A DNA stretch of 64,000 nucleotides from a virus: the IMG/VR virus record IMGVR_UViG_3300023213_000095. One strand, written 5' to 3'. The notes beneath the pieces were generated by a model, which had not been told where the DNA came from, ran no database searches, and saw nothing but the letters and a program-made list of their open reading frames with translations. Shown here piece after piece: positions 24,295 to 57,561 of the stretch (position 1 is the stretch's first letter; every line of letters starts with the position of its first letter). Made by a program: the position numbers and the translations under genes.

Positions 24295-24299
24295 GGCAG

Positions 24300-25546: not shown

Positions 25547-25548
25547 AA

Positions 25549-26025
25549 CTAGCTCTGAGAGACAAGATAAATCCAGGCATAGGCCCTGAGATAGTCAGTA
25601 GTATTGAGGACGGTTTGGTCAACACCAGAAGTTTGGTCGATTTGCCACTCGATATAATCACCAGCACTAAGGTTTATGAGTGTAGAAGCATTAAGCCCCA
25701 TATTCTGGCCAGCTCCCGGAGAGAATATCACACCTAATCCACCACGACTTGCTGTTGCACCATTAACAAGCGGGCGAAGAATATATTGAGCGACTGAGTT
25801 GGGTGAAGTAATAAATATGCTCACTCCGGAACAATATTTTCCACTAAAACCAGCTGGAATAGTAAACCGTGTGGGGTTGACCAACGTGTTATGCACACCC
25901 CCAAGGTCAAAAGCGTTGGTATCAAAGGTCAGTGCAGTAAAAGAAGAGGTGTGAATAGTCTGGTTTGAGGTGGCATAGGCTGCTGAGTAGACAGGAGAGC
26001 CAGCCGGATTGAAGATAACGCTCAT
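25549..26025 (-). CDS. hypothetical structural-module protein
   Basis: It is 158 aa. Confidence 0.45.
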   Translation of the reverse strand: MSVIFNPAGSPVYSAAYATSNQTIHTSSFTALTFDTNAFDLGGVHNTLVNPTRFTIPAGFSGKYCSGVSIFITSPNSVAQYILRPLVNGATASRGGLGVIFSPGAGQNMGLNASTLINLSAGDYIEWQIDQTSGVDQTVLNTTDYLRAYAWIYLVSQS

Positions 26026-26603
26026 GACTGCTTATAGTAGATGCGACCACTCACCTGCACTGCACCAGATAGGTTTAGAACGAAGGCATTCGCTGTGCTC
26101 GTCACAAACCAAGGTTCATTACTCAGGTCCAATACGAATGAGCCATTCGAAACCATGTTCATGACACCGGTCAGGTCTGTGGCCGCCCCATCCTTGAACT
26201 TCACATTGACTGACCCATTCACCACGAAAAATAGCTGGAATACTCGGATGGTCTGGCCACCCACACCAGTAATCAGGGTATTGTCACCACTGGCCGAGAC
26301 ATTGATACTCGCCGATGAGAGGTTTGCACTTGTTGGACGGTCATATTGGATGGGCCAACCACCACCAACAGCCGTTGCAGTGCCCTGATTGGCTGTGATA
26401 GTGCCACTAACAGGTTGAGTAACTGCACTTCCATCAACCTTGACCGCGTTGGTTGCTGTAACAGTTGCAATATTTACTCCACCCGAGTCAACAATTTCAA
26501 CTGGCCACTTGTTGGCAACAACAGCCGGTGTGCCCTGATTGGCAGTAACCGTGCCACTATCAATTGTGACATGCCCACCACCACTAAGGAGGATATCACC
26601 CAT
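26022..26603 (-). CDS. beta-rich structural protein with an internal tandem repeat
   Basis: One repeat unit is SGTVTANQGTPAVVANKWPVEIVD. The second is SGTITANQGTATAVGGGWPIQYD. Confidence 0.5.
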   Translation of the reverse strand: MGDILLSGGGHVTIDSGTVTANQGTPAVVANKWPVEIVDSGGVNIATVTATNAVKVDGSAVTQPVSGTITANQGTATAVGGGWPIQYDRPTSANLSSASINVSASGDNTLITGVGGQTIRVFQLFFVVNGSVNVKFKDGAATDLTGVMNMVSNGSFVLDLSNEPWFVTSTANAFVLNLSGAVQVSGRIYYKQS

Positions 26604-26914
26604 TATTCTCTAGCCAGGAGATTCACTGTGACGGTTGCTGAGGCTGCCTTCACAAAGATGATGGATGGAGAGGTAATAGGCAGTGTGACGCCCTGTCCTG
26701 GGGTGAGCGGAACAAATTGTCTGTCTTTGGTGCCGACTAGCACGTTGGGGGTGTTGCCAGGGTCGGCCTGCACAAAGACTTCGCGGAAGTTCCTGAAAGC
26801 TGCCAGCTGCCCATCACGGGAACTCCACCAAGTCGCGGTATCGAGGCCAACGGCGGTCGTGGTGACCCCCGTTAGCTGCGCCGTGAAAAGAGTCCCTGAA
26901 GTGAAAGAAGGCAC
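26603..26914 (-). CDS. hypothetical structural-module protein
   Basis: It is 103 aa. Confidence 0.4.
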   Translation of the reverse strand: MPSFTSGTLFTAQLTGVTTTAVGLDTATWWSSRDGQLAAFRNFREVFVQADPGNTPNVLVGTKDRQFVPLTPGQGVTLPITSPSIIFVKAASATVTVNLLARE

Positions 26915-27042
26915 AGGCGAAGCTTCCTAGCTACACGTTGTCGGACTGTAAAATGAGGCTCGGTGATAAGAAAAGAGTCATAGCCGAGCATCGAGCACCT
27001 TGAAGAAGATGAGTGGGAGCCCGGAGGCCCCCACCCAGAGGA

Positions 27043-27813
27043 TTACGCGATGGTGACGCCAGAGGCGTTCGTATTGTAGACGGTCGCTGAGACCAAGCAG
27101 GAGTGGTTAGCCGACGCTCCACCACCTTTGGTGATACGCACCTGGACAGTGAAGGTCTGCTGAGCACCCACGGCTCCCACAATGGAACTGACCTGATAGG
27201 AGAAGGTCAGTGTGGTTGCACCAGCCACCGGAGACGTGGCGGTATTGCTCAGGGCCGCTGCCGTAGCAACCGTTGCGACACCAGCCGTCCGAGCAATGGC
27301 GATATTGCCAATAGCTGTGTTCACGACTTCAAATGCACCAATGGCACCACCGGCACCGATGGCTGCTGTGAAGACCAGCTCCACGGTCGCACCATGCGCC
27401 GCGTTTGGCACAGTCACAGTAAGGGCATCAGTGAAGGTGTTGTCAGCAATTGCCGTGACGTTCTTGACGAGCGTGTTTTCAGAGACGGCTCCGCCTGAGG
27501 CCGCACCCAACTGGAGTGAGCCAGTCACGATGGGGCTGGTAATGGTCGGAGTATTAACGGTTGGAGAAGTAAGTGTGGGGGTGCCGCCTAGGGTATAAGT
27601 CCCGGCAACGGTGCCACCAAGGGTCGGAGCGGTGAGGGTTTTGTTCGTGAGAGTCTGAGTCGAAGTCTGGTCAACCACCACTACGTTCGTCCCATTCTGA
27701 TCATAGGTCAGGAGGTCGGCGTTGTTGGTATCGCAGACGTACTCATTGGCGCTGTCAAATGACTTAAGCGTGTATTTGCTCAGGTCTCGGCGCCACATAT
27801 ACTTAGCAGGCAT
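27043..27813 (-). CDS. Thr/Gly-rich fibre or decoration-like structural protein
   Basis: It is 256 aa. Confidence 0.5.
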   Translation of the reverse strand: MPAKYMWRRDLSKYTLKSFDSANEYVCDTNNADLLTYDQNGTNVVVVDQTSTQTLTNKTLTAPTLGGTVAGTYTLGGTPTLTSPTVNTPTITSPIVTGSLQLGAASGGAVSENTLVKNVTAIADNTFTDALTVTVPNAAHGATVELVFTAAIGAGGAIGAFEVVNTAIGNIAIARTAGVATVATAAALSNTATSPVAGATTLTFSYQVSSIVGAVGAQQTFTVQVRITKGGGASANHSCLVSATVYNTNASGVTIA

Positions 27814-29576: not shown

Positions 29577-30878
29577 TTACGAACCTGCCGCGCGAACGAC
29601 CACAAGGCTCTGACCGGTGATCCCATCATTGCGGGCGCAGAATGCCGGGTACTCCAAGAAGTACTGCTTACGCATTCTATACCACGCCTGGAAGGCGTCA
29701 CGGCCCGTGCCCGTTGTCAGGTCGCGGATGAGCACCGAACCATCCTCGTCCACCCACTTCCCAGGCTCCGAGACATACTCTCTAAAGCCCGCGTTGTTGA
29801 GGTCGAGATACATCAGGACATCGAGGGGGAAGTCACGAAGCGCTCGAATGGGCACGTCCCCGAACGGCACGTCGCCCTGTTTGAATGCCACAGTTCCCGG
29901 CTCGGGCCTGAGGAGGCTCGCGCCCATATACCGACGGTCTGCGTCTGTCAGCTGGATGATCAGTCGCCGTGTGGAGTGATGAGCCAGAATGTTGCTCACC
30001 TTTCCATTCAGCTTCTGGTCAACGATATCCGACGTACGCTGGATGATGTCAGTAGAGAGAGCACCCGTCGAAGCCGTCACGTAGCTGTTGTACGCAGGAA
30101 CCTGCGAACGGTCCAGCCCAAAGTACGGGTTTCGATAGGTTCCATCGTCCACGAGCGCCATCAGACCCCACCAAGCCTTCTCGTACGAAGTGTCGAGAAT
30201 GTCAGTGACAGTGCTATTGGCTACCTGAACGAGGTAGTCGCTGGCTGTCCAACCGGTGAACACAGACGTGTCAGCCGTCCATGAACCTCCGCCAGACGCC
30301 ACCGCCGTCACCTTACGAATCGAGGTGCGGAGGTTACCAGTCTGCGGGTCAACCGCTCCGATGAACATTCCAACGGAGAAGAATCGGTTGCCGAAGTTGG
30401 TATTGGTGATGTTGGCCGGGTTCTGCACGTTGACAGTCGTGCCGCTGTTCGACGTGAAGGTCGCCAGCACGCCACGTCCCTCCGAGTTGAGTGCATACTC
30501 ATCCCGGCGAGCCATGTCATCGATGAGGTACTGCATCTCGCTCTTACGAGCACTGATGAATGCACCTTCCGACGCCGTGGAGTCCTGCATGACTTCCCAC
30601 GTCATTCGCAGACGCGACATCAGCTTGCGCTGGTCGATCTTCAGCCGGGAATAACCCTGCTGACCTGCATCCGCGAAGTTGGAGTCCTCACCGACGAACA
30701 TCGGCGAGACGTTACGGCTGGTGTGGGCCAACCGAACGATTTCGAGACCCCGGAACGGTACACGTTCGGTCTTAATCATGTCCCGAAGGGGGTTCTTGTT
30801 GTTGACGCCCTCTGCCACACCTTCCTCAAAGACTTCCTTGAAGATGGCATCGAGCGCCTGTTTATCTGCACCTGCCAT
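29577..30878 (-). CDS. major capsid (coat) protein, P22-coat-like size and position
   Basis: It is 433 aa and lies immediately downstream of the scaffold-like and portal genes. The placement is inferred from gene order and size rather than from a diagnostic motif. Confidence 0.65.
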   Translation of the reverse strand: MAGADKQALDAIFKEVFEEGVAEGVNNKNPLRDMIKTERVPFRGLEIVRLAHTSRNVSPMFVGEDSNFADAGQQGYSRLKIDQRKLMSRLRMTWEVMQDSTASEGAFISARKSEMQYLIDDMARRDEYALNSEGRGVLATFTSNSGTTVNVQNPANITNTNFGNRFFSVGMFIGAVDPQTGNLRTSIRKVTAVASGGGSWTADTSVFTGWTASDYLVQVANSTVTDILDTSYEKAWWGLMALVDDGTYRNPYFGLDRSQVPAYNSYVTASTGALSTDIIQRTSDIVDQKLNGKVSNILAHHSTRRLIIQLTDADRRYMGASLLRPEPGTVAFKQGDVPFGDVPIRALRDFPLDVLMYLDLNNAGFREYVSEPGKWVDEDGSVLIRDLTTGTGRDAFQAWYRMRKQYFLEYPAFCARNDGITGQSLVVVRAAGS

Positions 30879-31841: not shown

Positions 31842-34139
31842 CTACATAGGACCAGGAGTCGGTCCCATTGGTGCGTTGCCGTGGGGGATGTTCATACCTT
31901 TGCCAGCTTTATTGGCGTTTCTCATGGCCTGGCCACCACCGGGAGCACTCGGACCAGTTGGAGCTGGGCCGGGGGGTCCTGGAGGGCCACCTGGGCCACC
32001 TGGCATGGGCGGTGGCTGGAGCATCATCTGTAGTTGGGCCATGTGCTGGGTGATAATCTGCTCTAAGTCGGGCCTACCCGTAATGAGAGTCCGCATCCGG
32101 TCAGTGTTGAGCCACTTTATACGCTCACCGAGATGGATTTGGAGGTTATACCAGGGCTTCACATCGAGCGGGGGTGGTCCCTGGGGAGCCTTTGCCCATT
32201 GCTCAAAGGCATCCTGCATCTGTAGGGCAGCTTGGACATGTGCGTCGAGAGAGGGAGCCAGGTCCGATAGTCCAAACTGCTGGAGAAGGGTATATCGCTG
32301 TTCTGGGTCCTGGGGATTGAGGAGCTGGAGCTGGTTGGCCTGCTCGATGGCTGCCCGTTTGCCCAGTGCCGTCTTTGGCATGTTGCTACCGTCTTCAATA
32401 GTGATGCTCACCACCCCCTGGAGCTGGGCGTTTGTGAACTGACGGAAGGTATAGCCTCGGTTAGGCGAGAGAACGGTGTAGGTGCGCTGCTCAGGACCGA
32501 ACTGACGCTCAAGCTCTAGAGCTGTGGTGGCCCACTGGCGATACATTTCACCACGGGCCTGGAACACCGATGTGAATCGGCTCTGAGAACGCTCAACCAG
32601 AAGCTGGAGGGCACTGAAGGCTTCAACTCCGGTCGGTTTCTGGCCCTTGATGATATCAAAGGCCCCTGAAAGGTCCTCGATGTCCTTGAGGTATTGCTCT
32701 CGTAGTGCAAAGAGAGATTGCTGAATCTCGGTGCCCTGAATACGCTCAGGTTTGCCTTGTCCCTGTGCAGCAAGGACATTCCACTTGATGATTATACCAG
32801 GCTCACCCGTAATGTTCTCAACCCCAGCGTTCTCAGGGATAATCCAGGTCGGGTTGGCCGTGCGCTGAATGATGAGCTGAATCAGGGAGTCGAGCTGGTT
32901 GATCTGGTCCTGTTTCTGAATCAGGGGACTGAGGGCACTGCGACCATAAATACGGCCCCCAAGATGCTCATACTGGCCATGGTGATAGGGGAAGAGAGGG
33001 TTGCCATCCACATCCTTGTAGGGAATGGGGCCGGGAATACCTTCGTCTTCTGCGTGCATCATGACGGGGTTGGTATCCCCCGCCACCCGCATCAGGAAGC
33101 CTTGTGGGAACTCTTTGGTTGGTTTGAGCCAGAGTTCATACTCTGTGACTCCTTCAACTGTATGAGCGCCTGCCGCACCGAGATAGGCAAACTGAGAACC
33201 TGTTCCAACGTCATTAGTAAGTGCCAGAGATTTGAAAATTTGTAGTGAACGATCGCTAGGAGACTTCTCCCACTGGAGCTGGCCAATCATCTCCGGGTGG
33301 TTGGCCTCGTAATAATGTTTATCACGCCACCGTAGCCTGATAATATAGGGAAGATCATCCCAACGTGTGACGTTTGGAGGGATGGCATATTCAAAGGGAC
33401 TCAGGGCTTCAGTTTTGCCTCGACCGAAGGCGGTCCAGTCTCCACCCGGCTGGCCATTCTGCTGTATGGCCTTCTGGAACTGCATGCCACCACAATTGGG
33501 GCAATGCTGATTGGCAGAAATGATTTCCTTCGGGCTCAGGACCTGTTGGCAACTCTGGCACTGCTCAAAGGGTACAAACACCCGATTGAAGCGCTTGTCC
33601 TTCTCCCACGAGGTGAATAGACAGGCATTTCCGGTGGTAATCATCCAGAAATCTGCCTCCCGCATCACCTGATCCATCATGTGCTCTTCATGGATGAGGG
33701 GGAGGGCGTTATCGGCTACCTCAGCAGTGGCAATAGAGCTGGGCTCATTCCCAATGGGACGAGCCTTGGCTACCAGGTTGATAGCCCCAAGATTGGTGCG
33801 GATGGCCTGGGTGACTTCTGCCATCTTGTTGGTGACTGGGCGGGGCACCCACTTCTGGAGCCGCTTGTCAATCCACTCCCGGCGGGTCGGGTGGAAGGTA
33901 ATCCACTGGCGATTAGCAACATAGAAGAGGTCCCGAAGCCATTCACGTTCCCAAATCCATCGATATTCTGTAGATTCCCGCTTCAGGATGTTGAACATAT
34001 CCAGGAGTCGGGCATCATCGTATTGACCACCCAGGGCTGGAGCCTGGGCCGTCTGCATTGGGTCAGGAGATGTGAATGGGCCACCTCCCCCATGAACTGG
34101 GGAAGGGGTGACACCCATTGTTGGAGCGGGGAAGGCCAT
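31842..34139 (-). CDS. portal protein (large, P22-portal-like length)
   Basis: It is 765 aa and directly follows the terminase region. The C-terminal tail is Gly/Pro-rich. Confidence 0.65.
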   Translation of the reverse strand: MAFPAPTMGVTPSPVHGGGGPFTSPDPMQTAQAPALGGQYDDARLLDMFNILKRESTEYRWIWEREWLRDLFYVANRQWITFHPTRREWIDKRLQKWVPRPVTNKMAEVTQAIRTNLGAINLVAKARPIGNEPSSIATAEVADNALPLIHEEHMMDQVMREADFWMITTGNACLFTSWEKDKRFNRVFVPFEQCQSCQQVLSPKEIISANQHCPNCGGMQFQKAIQQNGQPGGDWTAFGRGKTEALSPFEYAIPPNVTRWDDLPYIIRLRWRDKHYYEANHPEMIGQLQWEKSPSDRSLQIFKSLALTNDVGTGSQFAYLGAAGAHTVEGVTEYELWLKPTKEFPQGFLMRVAGDTNPVMMHAEDEGIPGPIPYKDVDGNPLFPYHHGQYEHLGGRIYGRSALSPLIQKQDQINQLDSLIQLIIQRTANPTWIIPENAGVENITGEPGIIIKWNVLAAQGQGKPERIQGTEIQQSLFALREQYLKDIEDLSGAFDIIKGQKPTGVEAFSALQLLVERSQSRFTSVFQARGEMYRQWATTALELERQFGPEQRTYTVLSPNRGYTFRQFTNAQLQGVVSITIEDGSNMPKTALGKRAAIEQANQLQLLNPQDPEQRYTLLQQFGLSDLAPSLDAHVQAALQMQDAFEQWAKAPQGPPPLDVKPWYNLQIHLGERIKWLNTDRMRTLITGRPDLEQIITQHMAQLQMMLQPPPMPGGPGGPPGPPGPAPTGPSAPGGGQAMRNANKAGKGMNIPHGNAPMGPTPGPM

Positions 34140-34868: not shown

Positions 34869-35089
34869 TCACGAATGTGTCCGATGATTTGTCCAACCTC
34901 GAAGGCGATGAGTCCAGTATAGACGAGGATGTTGCGTTTCTTGCCTGCCATGACATTGTAAGCCACAATGGGCAGGAGGCAACCGAGCAGGAGTCCATGA
35001 CAAACCCCCTTGAGGAGTTCGTCATCGACAATGGGTTTAGGTCCAGAAGATCTGGAGTCCTGTGACCGTTCCGGCGACATTGAGGACAA
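34856..35089 (-). CDS. small membrane protein
   Basis: It has a TM helix (GLLLGCLLPIVAYNVMAG). Its start overlaps the upstream ORF, so the true start may be internal. Confidence 0.3.
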   Translation of the reverse strand: MSSMSPERSQDSRSSGPKPIVDDELLKGVCHGLLLGCLLPIVAYNVMAGKKRNILVYTGLIAFEVGQIIGHIRDWRK

Positions 35090-35393
35090 AGTTCACAACG
35101 CTGGAGTCCAGCGCAATAGTTGTCGGGTCGGTCTTGTGAATGGTCACTCCGGTATCGCCGTTCACCCCTTTGAGGATAAGAGCCTGGGTGTTCCCAGCTG
35201 GCGGGACGATTGTGGCGGCAGTCGGGGTCGTGCCACCAGTGGGCACAGTTACCGTGTTGTTCCCGGCTCCGGTGAAGGTGAAAATCTGAATCTGGCCAGG
35301 GCTGGCAGTGTTGGAGGCCGCTGAGATGACCTCAGTGCCAACCACCCCACCACTATAGACCAGGGTAATCGTACGGGTTGCTGTTATTGCCAA
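35037..35393 (-). CDS. hypothetical Thr/Gly-rich protein
   Basis: It is 118 aa. It starts 10 nt inside the end of the large terminase gene. Confidence 0.45.
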   Translation of the reverse strand: MAITATRTITLVYSGGVVGTEVISAASNTASPGQIQIFTFTGAGNNTVTVPTGGTTPTAATIVPPAGNTQALILKGVNGDTGVTIHKTDPTTIALDSSVVNFVLNVAGTVTGLQIFWT

Positions 35394-36934
35394 AAGTCGT
35401 CTCCCAGTCTTGTGGAAATACCCTTACGGGCCTGTTCTCGTTCCAGCCACCGAGCCTCGGCGGCATCAAAATCATCCTCACCCATGCCCCGGGCGACCAG
35501 CTCAGCTTCTTTACCTTCCATACGAGCATCATGTCGGCGCATTAGCTCAATAGTGAAACGATAGTCGGCTGGAAGTTTGCTCAGGTCGCGGGTGGGCTTC
35601 TCTTCAGCAGGTTTAACCTTGGGAAGCACCGGCCATGTCATCAGGGCATAGCGGATGCAGTCAGGAAGTTCATCGTCCAGTTTGAAAACTCGCTCCTTGC
35701 GAAGCTGACCGTCACGCTGCTCATCATGTGCCCACCGATAGGCACTCATCTGCTCGATGGTGCGGGGGCAGCGACTGGCGACGAAGAAGAGCTGCTGGGA
35801 ATGAAGCCAGGACTTGACACGTTCAATCCCACTAACCACATCGTTCTCTGAGCCCTGACAGTAAATGTGGTGTTGAGCCAGCTCAATCATCCCTTGGCGT
35901 TCATTCTTGTTGCAAGCAAACTTGGCTTTCTCATTAGCTGCTAGACGCCGGAGATTGATGGCATGCTGGGTGAAGGATTTGTCCTGTTCGAGGTACTCTC
36001 CCACCACAACGAGCCCGTATTCGGTCGATACCAGCTTAACTGCTCCAAAAGGATGCTTTGCTCCCGTATCGATTCCCACGATAACCTGGCGGGTGGGGTT
36101 GATGTCTGGCCATTCGGGGATGATTCGTTTGACGGCCAGGTCATTCCTGAGAATCTGTGACTCGATGAGTCCTGCAAAGACTGCACCCTCGAAGATTACG
36201 AAGTCGGCCTCGTATTCCTGCCGGTACATTCCCTCGGACATCGTGGCCTGGGCTTCAGCCAGCTCAGAGGACTTGATAATAGGGTTGTCCTTGGTAGCAT
36301 AGCGGGTTGCCCAGTAGCCAGGGAATCTTTCGAGAGCCCGTTTATAGAGTTCTCTATATACCCAATCATAACCGTGCGGGGAAGACGTGAAGAAGGCCAC
36401 TCCCTCATGCTCGGTGAGGGAGGGACGAATGACTTCCCAGTGCTCCAGGGTCAGTTCACAAACCTCATCAATCCAGAGCCAATGAAGTCCTTGACCACGG
36501 CCTTGATCCGGCTTCTCCAGGGTCTGGAAGTGAATGAGGCTTCCATTTTTAAGCCATAGATCGTTGTGTTCGACGTTCCAGTTACGCACCCAGTCTGGGG
36601 GGATAAGCTGCTGGAAGGCTCGGATGTCATAACGATGGAGTTTATCATTGGTGGGAGCGCAGACCCAACCAACAGTATTAGGAACTAGGGCTTCTTTGAC
36701 TGCTGCAATGGCCCCTGCTCGTGTCTTGCCACCACGGCGCCCACTGAGTAGGGTGAGTCGATGAAACTGTCGATTTCCCTTGACAAAGCAGGTTGGGCAA
36801 ACAAGGTTTTCAGGGCTAATGAACTTCTGTTGGCACTTCGGGCAAAGGCGGGTTTGTAGAGCTTCCCAGAATTTGGTCTGATAGTAATGTTCCTGAAGTG
36901 GATGGTCGGGTAGAATGGGTAGCCACTTGGCCAT
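35384..36934 (-). CDS. terL: terminase large subunit
   Basis: The Walker A motif is LSGRRGGKTRAG. An N-terminal zinc ribbon (CPKCQQKF ... CPTC) is present. It is 516 aa and lies upstream of the portal gene. Confidence 0.8.
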   Translation of the reverse strand: MAKWLPILPDHPLQEHYYQTKFWEALQTRLCPKCQQKFISPENLVCPTCFVKGNRQFHRLTLLSGRRGGKTRAGAIAAVKEALVPNTVGWVCAPTNDKLHRYDIRAFQQLIPPDWVRNWNVEHNDLWLKNGSLIHFQTLEKPDQGRGQGLHWLWIDEVCELTLEHWEVIRPSLTEHEGVAFFTSSPHGYDWVYRELYKRALERFPGYWATRYATKDNPIIKSSELAEAQATMSEGMYRQEYEADFVIFEGAVFAGLIESQILRNDLAVKRIIPEWPDINPTRQVIVGIDTGAKHPFGAVKLVSTEYGLVVVGEYLEQDKSFTQHAINLRRLAANEKAKFACNKNERQGMIELAQHHIYCQGSENDVVSGIERVKSWLHSQQLFFVASRCPRTIEQMSAYRWAHDEQRDGQLRKERVFKLDDELPDCIRYALMTWPVLPKVKPAEEKPTRDLSKLPADYRFTIELMRRHDARMEGKEAELVARGMGEDDFDAAEARWLEREQARKGISTRLGDDFWQ

Positions 36935-37242
36935 TAGAGAAATGTCGCCTCAACCATACGTGGGCTTGCTGAAGTCGATTTCACATAAGCTGCTGTCGAG
37001 CCACTCGGGAGAATCTTACCAAGAATCCACGACCGGGCGACAGGAGCTGTAGTCAGCTGCCACTGATAACCAACCTTCACTGTCGTCTGCAGACCACTTG
37101 CAGGGTCATGGGTGACCAAAAGGTCATCGGGACCATTTAGGTTGTTGATAATGAACGTGTCAGCCCCACCAGAGGGAACGATCAATTGTGACCAACCTGA
37201 CGCATTAGCAGTAACATTAATAATGATGAAGGGAGCAGCCAT
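36934..37242 (-). CDS. hypothetical beta-rich protein
   Basis: It is 102 aa and ATG-coupled to terL. It has no HTH, so a small-terminase role is unlikely. Confidence 0.45.
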   Translation of the reverse strand: MAAPFIIINVTANASGWSQLIVPSGGADTFIINNLNGPDDLLVTHDPASGLQTTVKVGYQWQLTTAPVARSWILGKILPSGSTAAYVKSTSASPRMVEATFL

Positions 37243-37263
37243 GCTTACCTAACCGGAACCGAA

Positions 37264-37968
37264 TTAACACGCCAGAACTCCCACAAGGGTCCCTGTGCAC
37301 GCCGCTGGAAAGATGCCAATCGTATCGATGATGAACTTCTGGGATGCTGCTCCACAGGTCCAAGAGGTTGTGCCTTGTGCCCCCAGTGCGGCCTGGAGCA
37401 CGTAATTAGTCTGACCCTGGACGAGATTAATGCTTAATTGTGAGCCTGCCAGATTGGTTGTTGGTGTGGAGGTAGCAGCCGAGCCACATCCAGATAAAGT
37501 GACTGTATACACGATCATATCAGGCTGGGTTGTGGTGATGTTATTACCAGTCCATGGCGGAGCAGCGCTTCCTGAACTCGTGCTACTGAGGTCAATCACC
37601 GATGTTAGATTTGAGGTGCATGTTTTGAAGGTGGCAATATTGACGGTGAAGTTCTGTGTCCCTGACCATGACCAACTCCCACTGGGACTTGCATTACCCA
37701 TCACAGTCCAATAGGAGGCCTCTGTCAGGCCACTCATCTTTTTGGCTGCAATCTGTGTCCACCGAGCCGGGGGAGTGATTGTCACCGATGCCGAGATGCC
37801 CAGCGAGGCAATCTCGATATCCCCATCATTGGCACCCATTGCATCGAAGTCGGCTGCTGAGGAGCCACCATTGGAGCCCCGTCCATCAAACACATTGAAG
37901 GTGCAAGAAGCTGTACAGGGCCGAGCAAGACTGAGTATCAGTGCGAACGTGGCTAGAAGCTTGACCAC
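37264..37968 (-). CDS. secreted Ser/Thr/Gly-rich protein
   Basis: The start was refined to GTG at 37968, which gives a signal-peptide-like N-terminus (VVKLLATFALILSLARPCTA). The Arg/Trp-rich N-terminal extension in the track is judged spurious. Confidence 0.4.
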   Translation of the reverse strand: MVKLLATFALILSLARPCTASCTFNVFDGRGSNGGSSAADFDAMGANDGDIEIASLGISASVTITPPARWTQIAAKKMSGLTEASYWTVMGNASPSGSWSWSGTQNFTVNIATFKTCTSNLTSVIDLSSTSSGSAAPPWTGNNITTTQPDMIVYTVTLSGCGSAATSTPTTNLAGSQLSINLVQGQTNYVLQAALGAQGTTSWTCGAASQKFIIDTIGIFPAACTGTLVGVLAC

Positions 37969-38402
37969 ACAATCAGCCCAGAAACTTGACCATTGGAACT
38001 GGTTAGGATGCACACATTGTCGGCGGCTGTCGCTGTGCGTCGAAGCACATTGACTCCGTTCCCTGTAGCGATGCCTCCATTGGAACCAAAGTTCCAACCG
38101 GTTGCGGCTGTCGATCCCCCAAATACCCCGGCTGTTCCCGTACCACACGTTGATCCGGTTCCCTCAACAATCGCGAGATTGGTTGGCTTGGAGACGACCA
38201 AATTCACATGACAGATATAAATCTTTTGGCTGGCTATACCGCTGATAATCTGAGTGTTGGTTGTCAGGCTGATATTGGTATAGTTAGTCTGATTTACACT
38301 CGCCCCAGCACATCCAGTGGGACTGTTGACGTTCTGGGCTGCAACCGGCCTGGCACACAGGATGAACAGTGTAGCTAGGACAAGCCTTTTACTGATAGCC
38401 AT
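37953..38402 (-). CDS. secreted Gly/Thr/Asn-rich protein
   Basis: It has a signal peptide (MAISKRLVLATLFILCARPVAAQ). It is 149 aa. Confidence 0.5.
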   Translation of the reverse strand: MAISKRLVLATLFILCARPVAAQNVNSPTGCAGASVNQTNYTNISLTTNTQIISGIASQKIYICHVNLVVSKPTNLAIVEGTGSTCGTGTAGVFGGSTAATGWNFGSNGGIATGNGVNVLRRTATAADNVCILTSSNGQVSGLIVWSSF

Positions 38403-39081
38403 ACATCGCGCCCGTTACGCCCGTTCCACCGGCTGACCACTTTACGCCTGAGGTGAACTGCACCCCCTCATAAGAGACGAGCAGATTCGAGAGGCCTGGA
38501 ATGGAGAAGGAGGGGCCAATCGCATTGATGGGGGAGCCAGAATTGTCAGTAACCGTGATAGTCTGGGCTGAGGCATTGGTATTGTTGAAGTAGGCCGTCC
38601 AGAGGCAGGTGGTTGAGGCAAATACAGCCGTGGAGACTGTTGGGAGGGCTGAAACCGCCTGATTTACCAATGTGGTGCCACAGGGCGTCTTTGGAGTTGA
38701 AACCACTGTAGCACCAGCCGCAAAGGTCACATTCAGTGCACCGCCTGCTGTTACTGTCGCTGAATTTCCACCCTGATTGATGGTCGTGAGCCATGGGGTC
38801 GTATTGGCTGTATTGCCCGGTTGGACCGTCCATGTCCCTGACTGTGTGGCCAGAACGTTACTATCATTGGACACCGTGACGCGGGGAATCCCCACACCAC
38901 TCACACCAGTACCTGTAACCACAGCCGCACCAGCAAACTGCGTGATGTTGTCTGCCCATGGGGATGTGCCTTGGAAGACGGCCCCAGCAGAGGTCTGGAG
39001 CTGGGCGAGCACCTTTCCACCGAGGAGATAAATGGCTGTGGAGAAGGCAATCGCCGTCACCCACACCCGTAATGATTTCAT
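38389..39081 (-). CDS. secreted Thr/Gly-rich protein
   Basis: It has a signal peptide (MKSLRVWVTAIAFSTAIYLLGGKVLAQ). It is 230 aa. Confidence 0.5.
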   Translation of the reverse strand: MKSLRVWVTAIAFSTAIYLLGGKVLAQLQTSAGAVFQGTSPWADNITQFAGAAVVTGTGVSGVGIPRVTVSNDSNVLATQSGTWTVQPGNTANTTPWLTTINQGGNSATVTAGGALNVTFAAGATVVSTPKTPCGTTLVNQAVSALPTVSTAVFASTTCLWTAYFNNTNASAQTITVTDNSGSPINAIGPSFSIPGLSNLLVSYEGVQFTSGVKWSAGGTGVTGAMYGYQ

Positions 39082-39263
39082 CGAGCACCTCGGAGGCCTT
39101 CTAGAATGGCTTGTTTGCGGGCCGACTTATTGCGGTCAGGGCCTTGTGGAACCTGGCCCCGCCGAGCCTGGGGACGGGCTTTGCGGCTTGGGGGAGCCAC
39201 CTGATTGGAGATCCCCCCAAAGACCGGCTTGAGCACAGGCGTATCAGATGTCAGTCCAGCCAT

Positions 39264-39485
39264 TTACTGATTCAGGAAGTGGAGCAGCGCATTCACGCCG
39301 ACAATGACATAGGGAGCATACTTGCTGGGAATATACTGGAGATAGGTTCCACCAACCGCTGCGGCGTTGAGCCAGAACTCCTTCGACTTTACAAAACTCA
39401 ACACACCCTTGCCAGCATCAGCCGCAACCGCATCCTTCGCCAACTTTGCCGCGTCGTCTACAACCTGATTGGAGTCAACACCCAT
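39264..39485 (-). CDS. hypothetical Ala-rich protein
   Basis: It is 73 aa. A possible 30-aa TM peptide gene (39485..39577) lies between it and the upstream gene. Confidence 0.4.
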   Translation of the reverse strand: MGVDSNQVVDDAAKLAKDAVAADAGKGVLSFVKSKEFWLNAAAVGGTYLQYIPSKYAPYVIVGVNALLHFLNQ

Positions 39486-39576
39486 TAGAGTCCTCCTCTA
39501 TCACTATAAGCTGTAATGGCCATGAGAATAAGAACAACTACTACAAGAGCTGTAATGATAGACCAGAAAAAAGTCA

Positions 39577-40938
39577 TTAATATACTGTTACACTAAAATT
39601 GCGGAGAGTAATAGTATCGGCTGCATTTGCTGCACTCCATGTTGCACTCACTGAGACAAACTCTGCAACAGTGGTATCAATCGTTGATGTTGCCGTATTA
39701 ACGATGTCATCTAATACGGCCGCTGTCAGTGCCGTAAAGTATGTGGCTCCCGGCTGTCCTTGACAGTCGATCGTTCCGGCTGCACCGCTTGTTAGCACAT
39801 TACAGATGACACGGGCATTCCATCCTTGGTTCGTGAGCCCTCCAATAGCAGGATTCACTGCACCCGTTGTGGCGATTTGCACCACTGTTCCAGAGCCACA
39901 CCCTGAAACCGTGCAGAGCTTGAACTTGAGGTTGATCGTATCGGCCGCAAGGTTCGTTCCATAGACGCCCGCGAGTTCAATGACCAGTCGATGATGAGCG
40001 GCGTTGATCATCCCACCGGGGATCTTGCCGTCTGTCCCGATACCGAAAAATGTCTCAGTGACGGTGTTCGTGACGGCAGCATACGCGGCCGTATTAGTGA
40101 GGGCGTCGGGAATCGTGTGGTAGGTGTAGGTGGTATCCCCATTGAGCTGGCACCCTTGATAGTAACTAACGGCACCAAAGGCGCCATCATGGTACAAGGC
40201 ACCACGCACGTTCGCGGCACAAGTCGGAATGCCTGCCGTCGCGCCAGTGCCGCCTGCGGTGTCGGAGTGATCAACGAACATAGCCCCGGTGCTGATCGTT
40301 GCGCTTCCAGACGAGAGCTGATTGAGTCCTTGCGTACCCGAATCGGGCGACTTGAGCCCCCCCGTGATCGCGCCGTTCTGCGCGTTGCCGAAGAAGAACC
40401 CATTAGAAGATCCGGATCCCACGAGGAACCCAGACGGCATGAGAAGAAGCTGATCATTGCTTCCCAAGCCCGTGCTACAAGTGACCCCATCTGGCGTGAT
40501 ATGGATGCCGTTTGCTCCGTCGATTCCACCGTTAGCGACGCGGAATCCAAAGCACAATCCACTTTGCGGATTCGGACCGATCGTCAGACTGTAAGTACCT
40601 TGACCGCCGCCTCTGTTAAGATTCAGGACATCCGTCCCACCGAACGTCAAGGCGCTATTAGCCGAACTCCATGTCAGGCTTGCTGTTCCTCCAAAGGAGC
40701 CCGCATTATTATATTGTAGCTGGGTTGTTGAGCCTCCTGCACCCCCCGAGACTAGCTTGAGGTTCATATTCCCATTGGCATCCGTAGTGATGGCTGTGGG
40801 AACCCCTCCATTTACCCCAAAAATGACCGCCGCTTGTTGGGAATGAACGTAACCAGTCTCAAGAATCAGCGCCGTCAGGAGGGCCAGTGCCCAAGTCCCG
40901 AGATTAGTGACCAATCGCATTGACATTTCCACTCGCAT
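39577..40938 (-). CDS. secreted Gly/Thr/Asn/Cys-rich protein
   Basis: It has a signal-peptide-like N-terminus and is 453 aa. After the signal it begins QQAAVIFGVNGGVPTAITTDANGNMN. Confidence 0.55.
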   Translation of the reverse strand: MRVEMSMRLVTNLGTWALALLTALILETGYVHSQQAAVIFGVNGGVPTAITTDANGNMNLKLVSGGAGGSTTQLQYNNAGSFGGTASLTWSSANSALTFGGTDVLNLNRGGGQGTYSLTIGPNPQSGLCFGFRVANGGIDGANGIHITPDGVTCSTGLGSNDQLLLMPSGFLVGSGSSNGFFFGNAQNGAITGGLKSPDSGTQGLNQLSSGSATISTGAMFVDHSDTAGGTGATAGIPTCAANVRGALYHDGAFGAVSYYQGCQLNGDTTYTYHTIPDALTNTAAYAAVTNTVTETFFGIGTDGKIPGGMINAAHHRLVIELAGVYGTNLAADTINLKFKLCTVSGCGSGTVVQIATTGAVNPAIGGLTNQGWNARVICNVLTSGAAGTIDCQGQPGATYFTALTAAVLDDIVNTATSTIDTTVAEFVSVSATWSAANAADTITLRNFSVTVY

Positions 40939-41092
40939 CTACAGAAATGGGTTTGGCAACCCCACTATTGACACCAAAGATGACCAGAACCTGTTGGGCG
41001 GTCGTGGGCTGTGAAACCAAGGAGCCTAAAATCATCCCAAACAGGAGAGCAGCTAGAAGTTTTCTCATGTTACCCTGCATCACCCTGGCCAA
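40904..41092 (-). CDS. short secreted ORF that duplicates the N-terminus of the downstream 453-aa protein
   Basis: It is 62 aa. It has a signal peptide followed by QQVLVIFGVNSGVAKPISVDASGNVN, which parallels QQAAVIFGVNGGVPTAITTDANGNMN in the 39577..40938 protein. Confidence 0.4.
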   Translation of the reverse strand: MARVMQGNMRKLLAALLFGMILGSLVSQPTTAQQVLVIFGVNSGVAKPISVDASGNVNAIGH

Positions 41093-41468
41093 TGACGACG
41101 CTCAGCTTCTGGTAGGCCTCGACCGTGACCTGGCCAGCCGCTCCAGCTCCGCTCAGGGCAAGGGAGAGGTTCTTCCCAGCACCCAAAGGGATGCCATCAG
41201 CACCGAAGTCCAGCTCATAGGAGACTGGAGCATTGGCCGCACTGAGGGCTCCACTAATTACGAGGGGGCTCCCAGCCGAATCCTGAAATGTCCACGTCAC
41301 CGCACCAGACCCAGTGGTCAACTGAACCTTAATGCTCTGAACGAAGACCGTGTAGTTCGTTTTGGCCGTGACTAGGGTGAATGGCCCTGCATCAGCTGTG
41401 CCAACCGATTTGTTAGCTGCGTTGTTACCGAAGATTTGTCGTCTTCGGAGATATCCTTCACCGGGCAT
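41070..41468 (-). CDS. hypothetical beta-sandwich-like protein
   Basis: It is 132 aa. Confidence 0.45.
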   Translation of the reverse strand: MPGEGYLRRRQIFGNNAANKSVGTADAGPFTLVTAKTNYTVFVQSIKVQLTTGSGAVTWTFQDSAGSPLVISGALSAANAPVSYELDFGADGIPLGAGKNLSLALSGAGAAGQVTVEAYQKLSVVIGQGDAG

Positions 41469-41477
41469 GGTTACTCC

Positions 41478-41819
41478 TTAGAAGGCGTCAGCCAAATCGT
41501 CAGCCGCAACACCTGACCCTTCGGGTTTACTGGCTGCATTGATGCCCTCACCTGAGCCAGGGGCAGAACCTCTAGGCTCCTCAGATGGCTCAAACGGATC
41601 ATTCCACGGGTTGTTCCCTCGATAGGAGCCACCATCCTCATGGCCAGCTCCAACAGCTTCGGAACTCCCAATATAGGCTGGGGCACAGCTTGAATCCGAG
41701 GACTTGAAGCTGTAGACACCAGGGACCAGCTCGTTCCGGTCACCCGTCACTTCAGGAAACACACTGTCAGAGCGTTCAGACCGCTCAGCTGGAGCTTCCT
41801 TTGAAAGCTTTCCAATCAT
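41478..41819 (-). CDS. hypothetical acidic protein
   Basis: It is 113 aa. It overlaps another ORF, so this call is tentative. Confidence 0.35.
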   Translation of the reverse strand: MIGKLSKEAPAERSERSDSVFPEVTGDRNELVPGVYSFKSSDSSCAPAYIGSSEAVGAGHEDGGSYRGNNPWNDPFEPSEEPRGSAPGSGEGINAASKPEGSGVAADDLADAF

Positions 41820-42621: not shown

Positions 42622-42807
42622 TTAGGGCTTCGCTTTCTTCAGGCCTTCAGCAGCCTTGGATTGATACTCTTTCTTACCGCCCTTAGCTGCCCGCTTCTCG
42701 GATAGCATAATGGCCACGGCTTGTTTCTGGGATTTGACAGGTTTGCCGGAGCCGCCGGACTTGAGGGTTCCCTTCCCCCACTTCTCCATTACTTTATTCC
42801 ACGGCAC
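42622..42807 (-). CDS. small Lys-rich protein
   Basis: It is 61 aa and coupled to the HNH gene. Confidence 0.4.
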   Translation of the reverse strand: MPWNKVMEKWGKGTLKSGGSGKPVKSQKQAVAIMLSEKRAAKGGKKEYQSKAAEGLKKAKP

Positions 42808-43033
42808 AACGTGCTCTCCGCTGATTACATCCTAGATGAGCCAGCCTAATATTAGAAGGATGATTTGATCCGCCTGCCTTCACTGTTATTACATGATCCA
42901 ATGATTCAGTTCCCTCTAACATGATTCCACCACATAACCAGCATTTATCCCCGTCACGCTGTTTAAGAAATCCAACGGCAATTTCTCGGTATTCTGTTGC
43001 CATATTTCTCCGAGAATTATACCGGGCTTTCAT
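42794..43033 (-). CDS. HNH endonuclease
   Basis: The HNH core motifs are present: CWLCGG ... DHVITVKAGGSNHPSNIRLAHLGCNQRR. It is 79 aa. Confidence 0.65.
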   Translation of the reverse strand: MKARYNSRRNMATEYREIAVGFLKQRDGDKCWLCGGIMLEGTESLDHVITVKAGGSNHPSNIRLAHLGCNQRRARCAVE

Positions 43034-43436: not shown

Positions 43437-44168
43437 CTACGATGAACGAAACGTGCTGATTAGGTCCTCTACGGCAGCGGCCATATCGGGGTGATCGGGC
43501 GATATCGGAGCGGGGGCGAGTGGAAGTGGAGCAACTTCAATGACTGTGGGGAACTCGCCTTCAATCTCTCTACCAACACCAACAATCTCCCCGGTTAGCT
43601 CACGGGGGGTAGCCGGTTCAATCTTGAGCGCCAGGACCATGTTGGTAGATTCCTGGATGCCCTCAGAGGCCTGGAACTGTTTAAAGAGGGTTTCCTTGGC
43701 GGTGCCCATAGTAGCAATTAGGCGGGTCTTGTCGTCTGGGCTCTTCATGAAATCAGCCAGGTTGTCAGCCACCATCGGGATGATTTCGTAGCGAAGCTTG
43801 TTGAGGGGTTCCTCGAATTTGAGGAGGCCCTGCTTGTTGGCCCGGTAGAGGAGGTCAGTAAGCCCTGAGGCCGCATAACCCATCTTCTCGGCAATCTGGG
43901 CGTGGGTCAGGTCAGGGTACATGGCCCTGAGAGCCATGAACTGGGCTAGCTTCTCTCGGCTCTTTAGGGTAAGGCCACCATCAGGGTGCTTAAGGCCGGT
44001 TGGCGGGCTTCCTCGGCCAGGTGGGCGTCCAGTTGGCTCAGGTCTGGCTTTCTTGGGCCGACCGCGTGGACGCTTCGGGGGTAGGATGTAGGGGGATTGA
44101 GTTGCTGCTGGATTCGCAGGCGTTGGCGATGGAGAAAGGTCTCGAACGAGTCCATTGGTGTCAGACAT
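43437..44168 (-). CDS. DNA-binding protein with an AT-hook and HTH, candidate terminase small subunit
   Basis: It is the first gene of the leftward operon. It has an AT-hook-like tract (KRPRGRPKK) and an HTH-like segment (LTHAQIAEKMGYAASGLTDLL). The small-terminase role is inferred from its position and DNA-binding features only. Confidence 0.45.
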   Translation of the reverse strand: MSDTNGLVRDLSPSPTPANPAATQSPYILPPKRPRGRPKKARPEPTGRPPGRGSPPTGLKHPDGGLTLKSREKLAQFMALRAMYPDLTHAQIAEKMGYAASGLTDLLYRANKQGLLKFEEPLNKLRYEIIPMVADNLADFMKSPDDKTRLIATMGTAKETLFKQFQASEGIQESTNMVLALKIEPATPRELTGEIVGVGREIEGEFPTVIEVAPLPLAPAPISPDHPDMAAAVEDLISTFRSS

Positions 44169-44676
44169 GGGTTGGTTGCTGCGCCCCTGAGTTCCACAGG
44201 GTTTTGGAACGGGTATGAGCCGTCCTCAGATAGTGACCTGCCGCCAGCTATAGTGGGTTGGCTGACCGGACTTGAACCGGCTTAGACATGGTTCACAACC
44301 ACGTTCCTCGACTCTTCGGACTCAGCCAAACTGTGGGAACTATGGTCTGTGATCATGGGAAAATGGAGGGGCTCTACCGCCGGTAGTTTCACTATTGGGA
44401 AGCCCCTGGCCCAGAAGATTTACTGCCAGGGCTGCGGAGGGTGGGGGCAGCTCTAGCTAGGCGGAATGGTGCTGTAGATACCTTTAGAAGCATACCACAA
44501 TTAGTGGTAGTTTGTCAAGCCCCTATTTCGGACCCACCGGTTCCATAGCTTGTCGGCCACCCAAAATAATCCAATGAGTGTCCAAAGGGTATAAGAAGTC
44601 TCAATCGAAATCATGAGACCATCATACACTAAAATGGCCCCCCTGTCAAGCCCCCCAGGAAACTACGACGAAACGA

Positions 44677-53578: not shown

Positions 53579-53607
53579 AATGTTAACCACCATCCATAGG
53601 AGGACCG

Positions 53608-53820: not shown

Positions 53821-53854
53821 TGCACAGAAAGCACTGTGGAGGAGATTGGGAATC

Positions 53855-54406: not shown

Positions 54407-54407
54407 T

Positions 54408-55229: not shown

Positions 55230-55239
55230 GAGGTGAGGT

Positions 55240-57560: not shown

Positions 57561-57561
57561 C

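Follow-up and report, generated by a model that had tools for sequence, protein, structure and literature searches.

The 64,000-nucleotide stretch of virus DNA analysed here (hereafter, the window) carries on its minus strand a cassette of five genes, gA–gE (positions 37264–41092), which lies within a packaging/head operon and whose products begin with predicted export signals (Table 1). Our best explanation, which we put forward tentatively, is that the cassette proteins are constructed from fibre modules, are expressed late, exported and disulfide-bonded, and bind the envelope or glycans; their function, we infer, would be to mask receptors or to aid release. The five open reading frames described in the earlier note are all present, and an independent JGI gene call agrees on gA (234 aa, GTG start), gC (230 aa) and gD (447 aa). 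They are not strictly consecutive, as had been claimed, because a 73-aa open reading frame (39264–39485) sits between gD and gC; the moderately hydrophobic C-terminal half of its product points to a possible small membrane protein. The mature regions are rich in Gly, Thr, Asn and Ser, in agreement with the first reading, and contain 43–58% G+T+N+S+A and 3–8% charged residues (25–47% and 14–27%, respectively, in neighbouring structural proteins). Several are also rich in Cys, as had been noted, with 6, 4, 2, 8 and 0 mature Cys in gA, gB, gC, gD and gE, all even numbers, and the gB and gC domains keep their Cys residues with little or no variation. The predicted structures are beta-sandwich or fibre-like, in line with the beta-rich character assigned to the mature parts before.

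Table 1. Features of the cassette and its surroundings (positions in the window; ↓, predicted cleavage)
Feature	Position	Strand	Description
terL, large terminase subunit	35384–36934	-	downstream of the cassette, 102-aa open reading frame in between
102-aa protein	36934–37242	-	beta-rich, without signal peptide; between gA and terL
gA, 234 aa	37264–37968	-	GTG start; predicted signal peptide, six Cys in the mature part
gB, 149 aa	37953–38402	-	predicted signal peptide (VAA↓QN), then ∼125-aa Cys-containing domain (37956–38333)
gC, 230 aa	38389–39081	-	predicted signal peptide (VLA↓QL), QSGTWTVQPGN-type repeats, C-terminal beta-sandwich
gC C-terminal domain, aa 125–230	38392–38709	-	pLDDT ∼95; two conserved Cys
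73-aa open reading frame	39264–39485	-	strong Shine-Dalgarno sequence, no signal peptide
gD, 453 aa (447 aa by JGI call, start 18 nt downstream)	39577–40938	-	predicted signal peptide, stalk and C-terminal tip
gD C-terminal TNF/C1q-like jelly-roll domain, aa 275–453	39580–40116	-	pLDDT ∼90
gD signal peptide, aa 1–33	40840–40938	-	predicted cleavage VHS↓QQ; AlphaFold helix 3–25
gE, 54–62 aa product	40904–41092	-	TTG at 41092, or ATG at 41068 with AGGG Shine-Dalgarno-like motif upstream
132-aa protein	41070–41468	-	Gly/Thr/Ala-rich beta protein without signal peptide; upstream edge of the cassette
HNH endonuclease (42794–43033) and DUF6496 gene (42622–42807)	42622–43033	-	upstream of the cassette, same operon
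Sigma-70-like promoter	44621–44649	-	best-matching site (11 of 12 positions); precedes the entire gene string

Each of the five N-termini contains a basic n-region, an uncharged hydrophobic run of 11–17 residues and small residues at −3/−1, which bears out the signal peptides proposed in the earlier note. Cleavage is predicted at CTA↓S or TAS↓C in gA, VAA↓QN in gB, VLA↓QL in gC, VHS↓QQ in gD and TTA↓QQ in gE, with A or S at −1, and four of the five proteins have Gln at the predicted +1 position. These calls come from our own heuristic, which is lenient for proteins of such composition: composition-preserving shuffles were flagged at a rate of 7–26% per protein, which corresponds to a joint chance of ∼4e-5 for all five. 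Elsewhere in the window, 6 of 59 other genes were positive. The five proteins differ from ordinary tail fibres, because none of the 20 scanned structural and tail-module proteins (portal to a 933-aa protein, 13447–34139) was signal peptide-like. Within the gC family, 102 of 120 relatives were signal peptide-like; the mature N-terminus QLQQSGG was found in 97 of the 120, preceded by A or G in 91 of these 97, with a median pre-peptide length of 24 aa and an n-region charge of +2, and Gln occupied +1 in 79 of 120. In AlphaFold models, the N-termini of gC and gD form isolated helices. Judged from sequence, the N-termini are well supported as genuine Sec-type export signals, conserved in three protein families as family features and not arising by chance. 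No secretion or sorting signal other than the signal peptide was found in the cassette proteins, which gave zero Pfam or NCBIfam matches to C-terminal sorting domains (Por_Secre_tail, PEP-CTERM); the C-terminus of gA is hydrophobic, without a PEP motif and basic tail.

Two other assignments were rejected. Processing as lipoproteins (SPII) does not fit gB–gE, which have no Cys near the cleavage site, or gA, in which TAS↓C has a non-canonical Thr at −3. A virion tail fibre of the cytoplasmic type is at odds with the signal peptides in all five proteins, the location of the genes outside the tail module (13447–27813), between the HNH gene and terL, and zero matches to PHROG tail families among the five proteins. 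A VVS↓C sequence does occur elsewhere in the window, in the open reading frame at 887–2191.

For gA, no relatives were found among 5.8 billion proteins; it is an orphan, and its cleavage site is ambiguous. Beyond its signal peptide, gB consists, judged from sequence, solely of a C-terminal ‘tip’ domain that is very common. Proteins of 2448 clusters end in this domain, which follows a signal peptide or a membrane anchor, and signal peptide-like calls were obtained for 95 of 150 representatives and for 56 of 61 IMG/VR viral loci. The remaining genomic relatives, from an Acidobacteriota prophage lineage, contain a cytoplasmic domain and a true internal transmembrane (TM) segment, so the gB domain is always extracytoplasmic. 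In gC, the repeat part is modelled with low confidence, and the C-terminal domain, modelled as a jelly roll, has YomS, XepA and Ena subunits as its best fold matches. Its N-terminal motif is common to a myovirus baseplate module and an SU10-like podovirus, and this occurrence in phages of different tail types argues against a role in virion docking. The 132-aa protein at the upstream edge of the cassette gives a weak profile hint of relatedness to the gC domain (hhalign probability 22%).

The model of gD suggests a Gly-rich stalk that carries a TNF/C1q-like, lectin-type tip. The stalk is rich in Gly, Ser and Asn, and the middle of the AlphaFold model is of low confidence. The tip is kept at the C-terminus of 25 metagenomic proteins whose N-terminal parts differ, and fusions of the tip with a DUF2190 domain and with collagen repeats were seen too. 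Most relatives of the tip have a signal peptide. Of the five proteins, gD is the only one built like a fibre, with a tip at its C-terminus, and its BFVD matches are collagen-, Stf- and C1q-containing phage proteins. A similar combination of stalk and jelly-roll tip is present in PRD1 P5, the short-fibre CBD of cyanophage A-1(L), collagen/C1q phage fibres and Bdellovibrio Bd2734/Bd2133, and the tip domains of gD and of these phage and Bdellovibrio fibres shuffle in the same modular way; the similarity is at the fold level only. In contrast to gD, the phage fibres have no signal peptide and assemble in the cytoplasm, whereas the mosaic adhesive trimer fibres of Bdellovibrio, which are exported to the cell surface, are cellular and not phage-encoded. 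The gE product is composed of a signal peptide and ∼30 mature residues and is a paralogous stub of the gD N-terminus, with 59% identity over 27 aa and, by our own count, ∼70% DNA identity to the 5′ end of gD over ∼85 nt of homologous columns.

The virus is probably a virulent podovirus that infects soil Acidobacteriota, and the window looks like that of a phiEco32/SU10-like virulent podovirus. It contains replication and modification genes of virulent type, and neither an integrase nor a repressor was present in the subset of its genes that was scanned. The placement of the cassette between a TerS-like gene and terL, as described earlier, holds for terL; the 243-aa ‘TerS-like’ gene (43437–44168) gave zero Pfam or NCBIfam matches, and it is the HNH endonuclease and DUF6496 genes that are confirmed upstream. 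The cassette genes overlap or abut their late-operon neighbours. Consensus scans, which provide weak evidence, found no promoter or terminator signals above shuffle expectation within the cassette, and no site comparable to the sigma-70-like match upstream of the gene string was found inside it. This organization suggests that the cassette is a late-operon block made along with the packaging and head genes. Searches for a DGR found no repeats longer than 23 nt in 36900–41500, and no RT was noticed in the part of the window that was scanned. PADLOC returned no match to superinfection-exclusion or anti-phage defence families for the five proteins or their neighbours.

Secreted cargo had been considered unexpected in a head/packaging region, which is valid for model phages but not for uncultured ones, in which the arrangement is recurrent and not a one-off insertion. 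Clusters of signal peptide-bearing proteins adjoin terL, portal, capsid, baseplate or tail genes at loci L001, L004, L007, L008 and L114 and in a 33-locus Acidobacteriota prophage lineage. The carriers are unrelated (pro)phages, mostly of Acidobacteriota, and many relatives lie within prophages of Acidobacteriota and Alphaproteobacteria genomes. Genes for beta-helix glycanases or a ConA-like lectin belong to several of the clusters, and the beta-helix, pectate-lyase or GH28-like proteins co-encoded by relatives have signal peptides in some cases and lack them in others. In the 33-locus lineage, TerL is mostly 85–96% identical and the adjacent exported beta-helix protein mostly ∼45–82%, so the latter appears to evolve fast compared with TerL.

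A precedent for such proteins is provided by phages of Porphyromonas gingivalis, which encode signal peptide-bearing proteins of unknown function with Gln at +1, the ‘Bacteroidetes Q-rule’ (Matrishin et al. 2023, PMC10367356; Q-rule, PMC5837995), and for which the authors proposed modification of the host envelope (PMC10367356). In both cases the signal peptides are phage-encoded and of Sec/SPI type, with a predicted Gln at +1. However, the P. gingivalis phages are temperate phages of Bacteroidota with scattered genes, whereas the cassette described here forms a five-gene unit inside the packaging/head operon of a phage that is probably virulent; its proteins are fibre/lectin-like, belong to very large families and have relatives that map to Acidobacteriota. 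Gln is at +1 in four of the five proteins, yet 41 of 45 loci with genomic relatives are in Acidobacteriota, which are not mentioned in the Q-rule paper (PMC5837995). Exported proteins are also encoded by phages T5 (Llp) and T1/phi80 (Cor), and receptor neutralization is the mechanism favored here as well. Both Llp and Cor, which are small lipoproteins, have FhuA as their target (llp adjoins the RBP gene), and their blocking of the receptor protects against superinfection and against progeny loss on debris. The cassette proteins differ from them in that they are larger, lectin/fibre-like and multigene, without a lipobox, sequence similarity or a PADLOC match.

In the explanation that we favor, it is strongly supported that each of the five proteins begins with a cleavable type-I signal peptide for export by Sec and that the mature parts are disulfide-competent beta-sandwich or fibre-like modules. 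Virion fibres draw on the same shuffling stock of fibre and tip domains. The cassette modules would be routed to the periplasm or cell surface and, outside the cytoplasm, may attach to glycans of the host envelope, with EPS, LPS or the like as receptors. The bound proteins could then mask or occupy phage receptors on the infected cell and on debris; in relatives, they may act with the co-encoded secreted beta-helix glycanases and ConA-like lectin in capsule remodelling. The expected effect would be less superinfection, less progeny loss by re-adsorption and easier escape from the EPS matrix. Against this explanation, late expression is a poor fit to classical superinfection exclusion, periplasmic proteins are not automatically located at the outer surface, and several signal peptide-bearing relatives carry bona fide tail-fibre modules (see below).

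It is rather unlikely that the proteins are instead accessory lysis or egress factors that, by analogy with XepA of PBSX, would disrupt or cross the outer membrane, capsule or EPS late in infection. Such a role would be in keeping with lambdoid phages, whose lysis genes sit directly upstream of the terminase genes, as well as with the 73-aa, possibly membrane-associated open reading frame within the cassette, the beta-helix/pectate-lyase/GH28-like proteins of relatives and the L001 locus, where small membrane proteins reminiscent of a lysis cassette come after the signal peptide-bearing proteins. However, no enzyme domain was detectable in any of the five proteins, and the endolysin (GH108, 12778–13308) and a holin-like open reading frame are ∼25 kb away. 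The fold match of the gC domain to YomS of SPbeta and XepA (PMC6834076) also favors this role, but it is not accompanied by a sequence-profile match (13% and 7% identity, respectively), and those proteins are pentamers of Firmicute phages linked to a lysis cassette. Lysogenic-conversion (moron) cargo, i.e. prophage-expressed adhesins or surface modifiers that benefit the host, was among the suggestions of the earlier note and is now very improbable: the relatives in Acidobacteriota and Alphaproteobacteria prophages and the Wzy_C gene that adjoins the L001 cluster speak for it, and the virulent-like window, its scanned genes without integrase or repressor, the overlaps with late-operon neighbours and the lack of an own promoter or terminator above chance speak against it.

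The proteins could also remain attached to the cell as uncleaved signal anchors, i.e. type-II inner-membrane proteins with periplasmic beta domains that would, for example, block DNA entry of incoming phages. The true internal TM segment of gB-domain relatives, the long h-region of gC (17 residues) and the ambiguous site in gA agree with anchoring, which is nevertheless improbable given the canonical −1 and +1 residues in four of five proteins and the A or G at −1 right before the invariant mature motif of the gC family, a pattern typical of cleavage. The same membrane-anchored gB relatives, which could not leave the membrane, weigh against the cassette proteins being fibres or decoration proteins of the virion with a periplasmic maturation step, in which they would fold and acquire disulfides after export and then dock onto particles assembled in the cytoplasm when the holin has opened the inner membrane or the cell has lysed. 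We consider this unlikely, as the gC N-terminus shared between different tail types makes a particle adaptor unlikely, the tail module of the window already holds fibre-like proteins without signal peptides (including a canonical 302-aa one), and the genome positions vary (before terL, after the portal, inside the baseplate module), unlike those of true fibres. To our knowledge, there is also no precedent for periplasmically matured virion fibres in tailed phages. This hypothesis is kept alive by tail-fibre PHROG modules in signal peptide-bearing relatives, one of which (L007) carries an S74 chaperone, and by the fibre motif common to P0007 and the 302-aa fibre of the window. It is further supported by fibre-like positions of relatives (following Baseplate_J/I in L007, closing the tail module in L001), the fibre architecture of gD and its phage-fibre fold relatives, the fusions of its tip, and the conserved even Cys counts, which would explain a need for oxidative folding.

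A broader version, in which signal peptide-bearing fibre/tip proteins are virion components assembled in two compartments and apparently widespread among phages that infect Acidobacteriota and other bacteria of soil and freshwater, seems quite unlikely; if true, it would mean a two-compartment pathway for tailed phages, with periplasm-folded parts joining cytoplasmically built particles after the holin breach. In summary, uncharacterized relatives of these fibre-like proteins with predicted export signals recur in many uncultured phages.

A cassette of predicted secreted, fibre-/lectin-like proteins lies inside the packaging/head operon of the window, and the theme recurs beside terL, portal, capsid, baseplate and tail genes in many unrelated uncultured phages and prophages. 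The earlier note had regarded secreted cargo as unexpected in a head operon; the placement stands, but its recurrence across unrelated phages means that it is not a one-off. The minus strand forms one long late gene string that extends from a promoter-like site through the tail genes, with the cassette genes gA–gE between the HNH/DUF6496 pair and terL. Gene calls from JGI reproduced gA, gC and gD. Neighboring genes overlap (gC/gB by 14 nt, gB/gA by 16 nt and gE/gD by 35 nt) or abut, and a consensus scan of the cassette found no promoter or terminator signals above shuffle expectation, although scans of this kind are weak evidence. Co-expression of the five proteins with the late genes is well supported. 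All five ORFs are present, although they are not strictly consecutive, contrary to the earlier note, since a 73-aa ORF without a signal peptide interrupts the series. The N-terminal half of its product is amphipathic and acidic and the C-terminal half moderately hydrophobic, so it may be a small membrane protein.

Features of the late gene string and predicted exported proteins encoded elsewhere in the window
Feature	Position (nt)	Strand	Remarks
Promoter-like site	44649-44621	minus	11/12 consensus positions; head of string
243-aa ORF		minus	next after promoter-like site; no family match
HNH gene	42794-43033	minus	upstream of cassette
DUF6496 gene	42622-42807	minus	upstream of cassette
Four small ORFs		minus	between DUF6496 gene and gE
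gE	40904-41092	minus	54-62 aa
gD	39577-40938	minus
73-aa ORF	39264-39485	minus	between gD and gC; strong Shine-Dalgarno, no signal peptide
gC	38389-39081	minus
gB	37953-38402	minus
gA	37264-37968	minus
102-aa ORF		minus	between gA and TerL
TerL	35384-36934	minus	Terminase_6N and phrog_2
Portal	31842-34139	minus
Major capsid protein	29577-30878	minus
Tail genes	down to 13447	minus
GH108 endolysin	12778-13308		end of string, beyond tail genes
Lipoprotein	887-2191		VVS/C lipobox, CarboxypepD_reg-like region; flagged by heuristic
AYA/Q signal-peptide protein	2195-2845		flagged by heuristic
Trypsin-like protease, secreted	8966-9613		flagged by heuristic
Further signal-peptide protein	9615-10061		flagged by heuristic

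The N-termini of gA–gE contain one to three basic residues followed by an uncharged hydrophobic run of 11–17 residues, with predicted −3/−1 sites VAA/QN in gB, VLA/QL in gC, VHS/QQ in gD, TTA/QQ in gE and CTA/S or TAS/C in gA (the slash marks cleavage). All five fit our heuristic for classical signal peptides, which also flagged 6 of the 59 other window genes, four of them encoding convincing exported proteins. Because it flagged 7–26% of shuffles of each of the five sequences (joint chance ~4e-5), the heuristic alone is suggestive, not decisive. The mature parts consist of 43–58% Gly, Thr, Asn, Ser and Ala and only 3–8% charged residues, in agreement with the low complexity described in the earlier note. 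Several are also Cys-rich, as had been noted; the mature Cys counts for gA to gE (6, 4, 2, 8 and 0) are all even, a pattern expected of disulfide-bonded exported proteins. Export by Sec and cleavage by signal peptidase I are predicted with good support from sequence, as is folding outside the cytoplasm. Together with the four exported proteins encoded outside the cassette, the phage is predicted to encode at least nine.

Family conservation shows that the signal peptides of gB, gC and gD are not chance features. For gC, at least 792 relatives were found, and 102 of the 120 examined are signal-peptide-like. The mature N-terminus QLQQSGG is conserved in 97 of the 120, which have a median pre-peptide of 24 aa and an n-region charge of +2, and in 91 of these 97 it is directly preceded by Ala or Gly at −1. 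The mature region of gB (~125 aa; 37956–38333) finds matches in 2448 clusters at 50% identity; in every case the match forms the extreme C-terminus of the protein (119–2092 aa), and Cys64, Cys86 and Cys131 are invariant. It is a large uncurated domain family. Signal-peptide-like N-termini occur in 95 of 150 representatives and in 56 of 61 IMG/VR loci, a few of which are 5′-truncated, and most of the other genomic relatives combine a conserved N-terminal domain on the cytoplasmic side with an internal transmembrane segment, so the gB domain is predicted to be always located outside the cytoplasm. Some gB-family members carry gC repeat modules (QSGTWTV, TQPVSGTFWQ and an AQLQ(V/Q)S start); both families therefore share a modular pool that supplies the signal peptide, the stalk repeats and an exchangeable tip. 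Residues 279–453 of gD make up a domain that lies at the C-terminal end of 25 metagenomic proteins whose N-terminal parts are otherwise unrelated. Most of these begin with a classical signal peptide, often ending in A-Q; two have a DUF2190 N-terminal domain and no signal peptide, and one has collagen repeats. No homologue of gA was found among 5.8 billion proteins, which makes it an orphan.

Searches of Pfam, PHROGs, NCBIfam and PADLOC with all five proteins and their neighbors gave no match apart from sub-threshold noise. Structure prediction had been called for in the earlier note: in an AlphaFold2 model of gD built with 26 sequences, residues 275–453 had a pLDDT of ~90, the N-terminus was a helix and the stalk (residues 68–265) was not modelled. 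Comparison with BFVD returned many uncultured-phage proteins, including ones annotated as collagen, Stf-repeat, Mtd-N and C1q, all fold-level matches at 5–15% identity. No sequence-profile link to PDB entries was found, the gC family profile giving only chance-level matches. The construction of gA–gE from fibre-type modules that carry beta-sandwich tips is well supported. A set of paralogues was rejected as an account of the cassette, because hhalign gave no significant relationship among the gB, gC and gD domains or between them and small beta proteins without signal peptides (the best pair was a 132-aa ORF and the gC domain, with a probability of 22%). The exception is gE, a stub paralogous to the 5′ end of gD. 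It repeats the last part of the gD signal peptide together with the ~27 mature residues that follow (40750–40866; 59% amino acid identity) and stops after the duplicated part, overlapping the gD start; it resembles a scar left by the exchange of cassettes at a conserved N-terminal module, QQxxVIFGVNxG. Hypervariation driven by a DGR or by repeats was rejected, as no repeats longer than 23 nt were found at 36900–41500. Three small Gly/Thr/Ala-rich beta proteins without signal peptides (36934–37242, 41070–41468 and 35037–35393), with no homologue in any curated library, flank the cassette and terL. In another locus (L002), a gD-tip relative that directly follows an HNH gene likewise has small beta-rich ORFs on its flanks, with no homology shown to the three in the window.

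Clusters of signal-peptide proteins recur in structural and packaging regions of unrelated elements. Four follow the tail genes and a Wzy_C gene in a MAG phage (L001), and four, two of them beta-helix proteins, lie between capsid and tail genes of a T7-like element (L004). In a myovirus-type prophage (L007), they occur in the baseplate module and after Baseplate_J/I, and one has tail-fibre PHROG matches and an S74 chaperone. An alphaproteobacterial prophage (L008) encodes a pectate-lyase-like signal-peptide protein between TerL and portal and four more signal-peptide proteins after portal, and an SU10-like prophage (L005) has a gC relative. In several IMG/VR contigs with other TerL types, the domain gene is located 1–4 kb upstream of terL or a few kb past terL or portal. 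A megablast and tblastn search of 50,697 phage records gave no match at the DNA level and, for gD and gC, none at the protein level; gB had a single match, in MW202554, a complete 44-kb podovirus genome. There, the gene directly after portal encodes an 846-aa signal-peptide protein ending in the gB domain, and the next products are a ConA-like lectin with a signal peptide and a GH28 beta-helix protein lacking one. The deposited annotation of the 846-aa protein (MW202554.1, 27039–29579) is 'glycoprotein repeat domain-containing protein'.

An Acidobacteriota prophage-like lineage (L010–L050), possibly a temperate phage of wide distribution or else a GTA-like element that has been domesticated, accounts for 33 of the 45 genomic loci. 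Its gene order is a membrane-anchored gB-domain protein, a beta-helix protein of ~760–870 aa and TerL; an N-terminal signal peptide of the beta-helix protein was seen only in L014, where its start could be resolved. TerL is mostly 85–96% identical within the lineage and the beta-helix protein mostly ~45–82%. The two extracytoplasmic genes directly upstream of TerL (e.g. L010:8924–14571) are far more divergent than TerL. Since 41 of the 45 genomic relatives belong to Acidobacteriota (Terriglobia, Acidiferrales and others) and named gC relatives to Bryobacteraceae and Acidiferrales, the host is probably an acidobacterium. Gln at the predicted +1 position is common (four of the five cassette proteins and 79 of 120 gC relatives), and the relatives map to Acidobacteriota; the Q-rule has been described as a trait specific to Bacteroidetes. 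A Bacteroidota host, suggested by the pattern, finds no support in the distribution of the relatives, which are mostly from Acidobacteriota. A literature search on signal-peptide proteins in Acidobacteria prophages or on secreted fibre proteins found nothing specific.

It is well supported that gA–gE are not the ordinary tail fibres of the phage, because none of the 20 structural and tail-module proteins scanned (13447–34139) is signal-peptide-like, including a canonical 302-aa fibre-like protein (20089–20997). This protein shares a 33-aa fibre motif (70% identity) with P0007, a signal-peptide protein of the MAG phage (L001:10406–10504), which shows module exchange between virion and exported fibre-like proteins. 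We infer that the exported proteins would bind envelope glycans and mask or remodel phage receptors on the infected cell and debris, or aid progeny in leaving the EPS matrix. This reading draws on the lectin-like folds, the beta-helix glycanases, ConA-like lectin and Wzy_C encoded alongside such proteins in relatives, the rapid divergence relative to TerL, the logic of T5 Llp and the EPS-rich lifestyle of the likely hosts. Virion fibres matured in the periplasm are a possible alternative, with which the conserved cysteines agree, as do the fibre modules, an S74 chaperone and the fibre-like placement in the MAG phage and the myovirus-type prophage; the gC N-terminal motif, common to phages of different tail morphologies, points to a host and not a virion partner.

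The fold match to YomS/XepA suggests a role in lysis or egress, as does the location upstream of the terminase, a place occupied by lysis genes in lambdoid phages, but the endolysin of the window lies 25 kb away and no enzyme domain was detected in the proteins. Conservation of the cleavage sites makes uncleaved anchors unlikely for most of the proteins. Lysogenic conversion, also proposed earlier, is unlikely because the phage looks like a virulent phiEco32/SU10-like podovirus. Its genes include a PolA-UDG fusion, a phiEco32-type COOH-NH2 ligase, an ATP-grasp gene and an RNA ligase, related loci match the SU10 adaptor and MCP, and no integrase was seen among the window genes scanned. The fusion is a 919-aa protein (4093–6852) that joins a uracil-DNA-glycosylase-superfamily domain to a family A DNA polymerase. 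At 52331–58430, the phiEco32-like COOH-NH2 ligase, a GATase-like gene and an R2K ATP-grasp gene stand in a row; such a module for the ligation of peptides or amino acids is typical of phiEco32-like phages.

To our knowledge, the exported proteins described from phages so far are mostly single morons, spanins or small receptor-blocking lipoproteins. The nearest mechanistic analogues are Llp and Cor, and the nearest described case is that of P. gingivalis phages, with signal-peptide proteins of unknown function that obey the Q-rule (PMC10367356). In structure, TNF/C1q-type fibre tips and XepA/YomS (PMC6834076) come closest. The system described here differs from these in its multigene cassette, its placement in a packaging/head operon, its recurrence across phage lineages and its very large uncurated families; for the gB type, which comprises ~2,400 clusters at 50% identity, Pfam, NCBIfam, PHROGs and PADLOC contain no model. 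Should the proteins mask or remodel receptors, phages of EPS-rich soil hosts would share a widespread strategy, acting late, that counters re-adsorption or promotes egress; we know of almost no phage biology for such hosts. If the proteins are instead components of the virion, a periplasmic branch of tailed-phage assembly would have gone unrecognised so far. Under either reading, the conserved signal peptides and tip domains are concrete, clonable targets.
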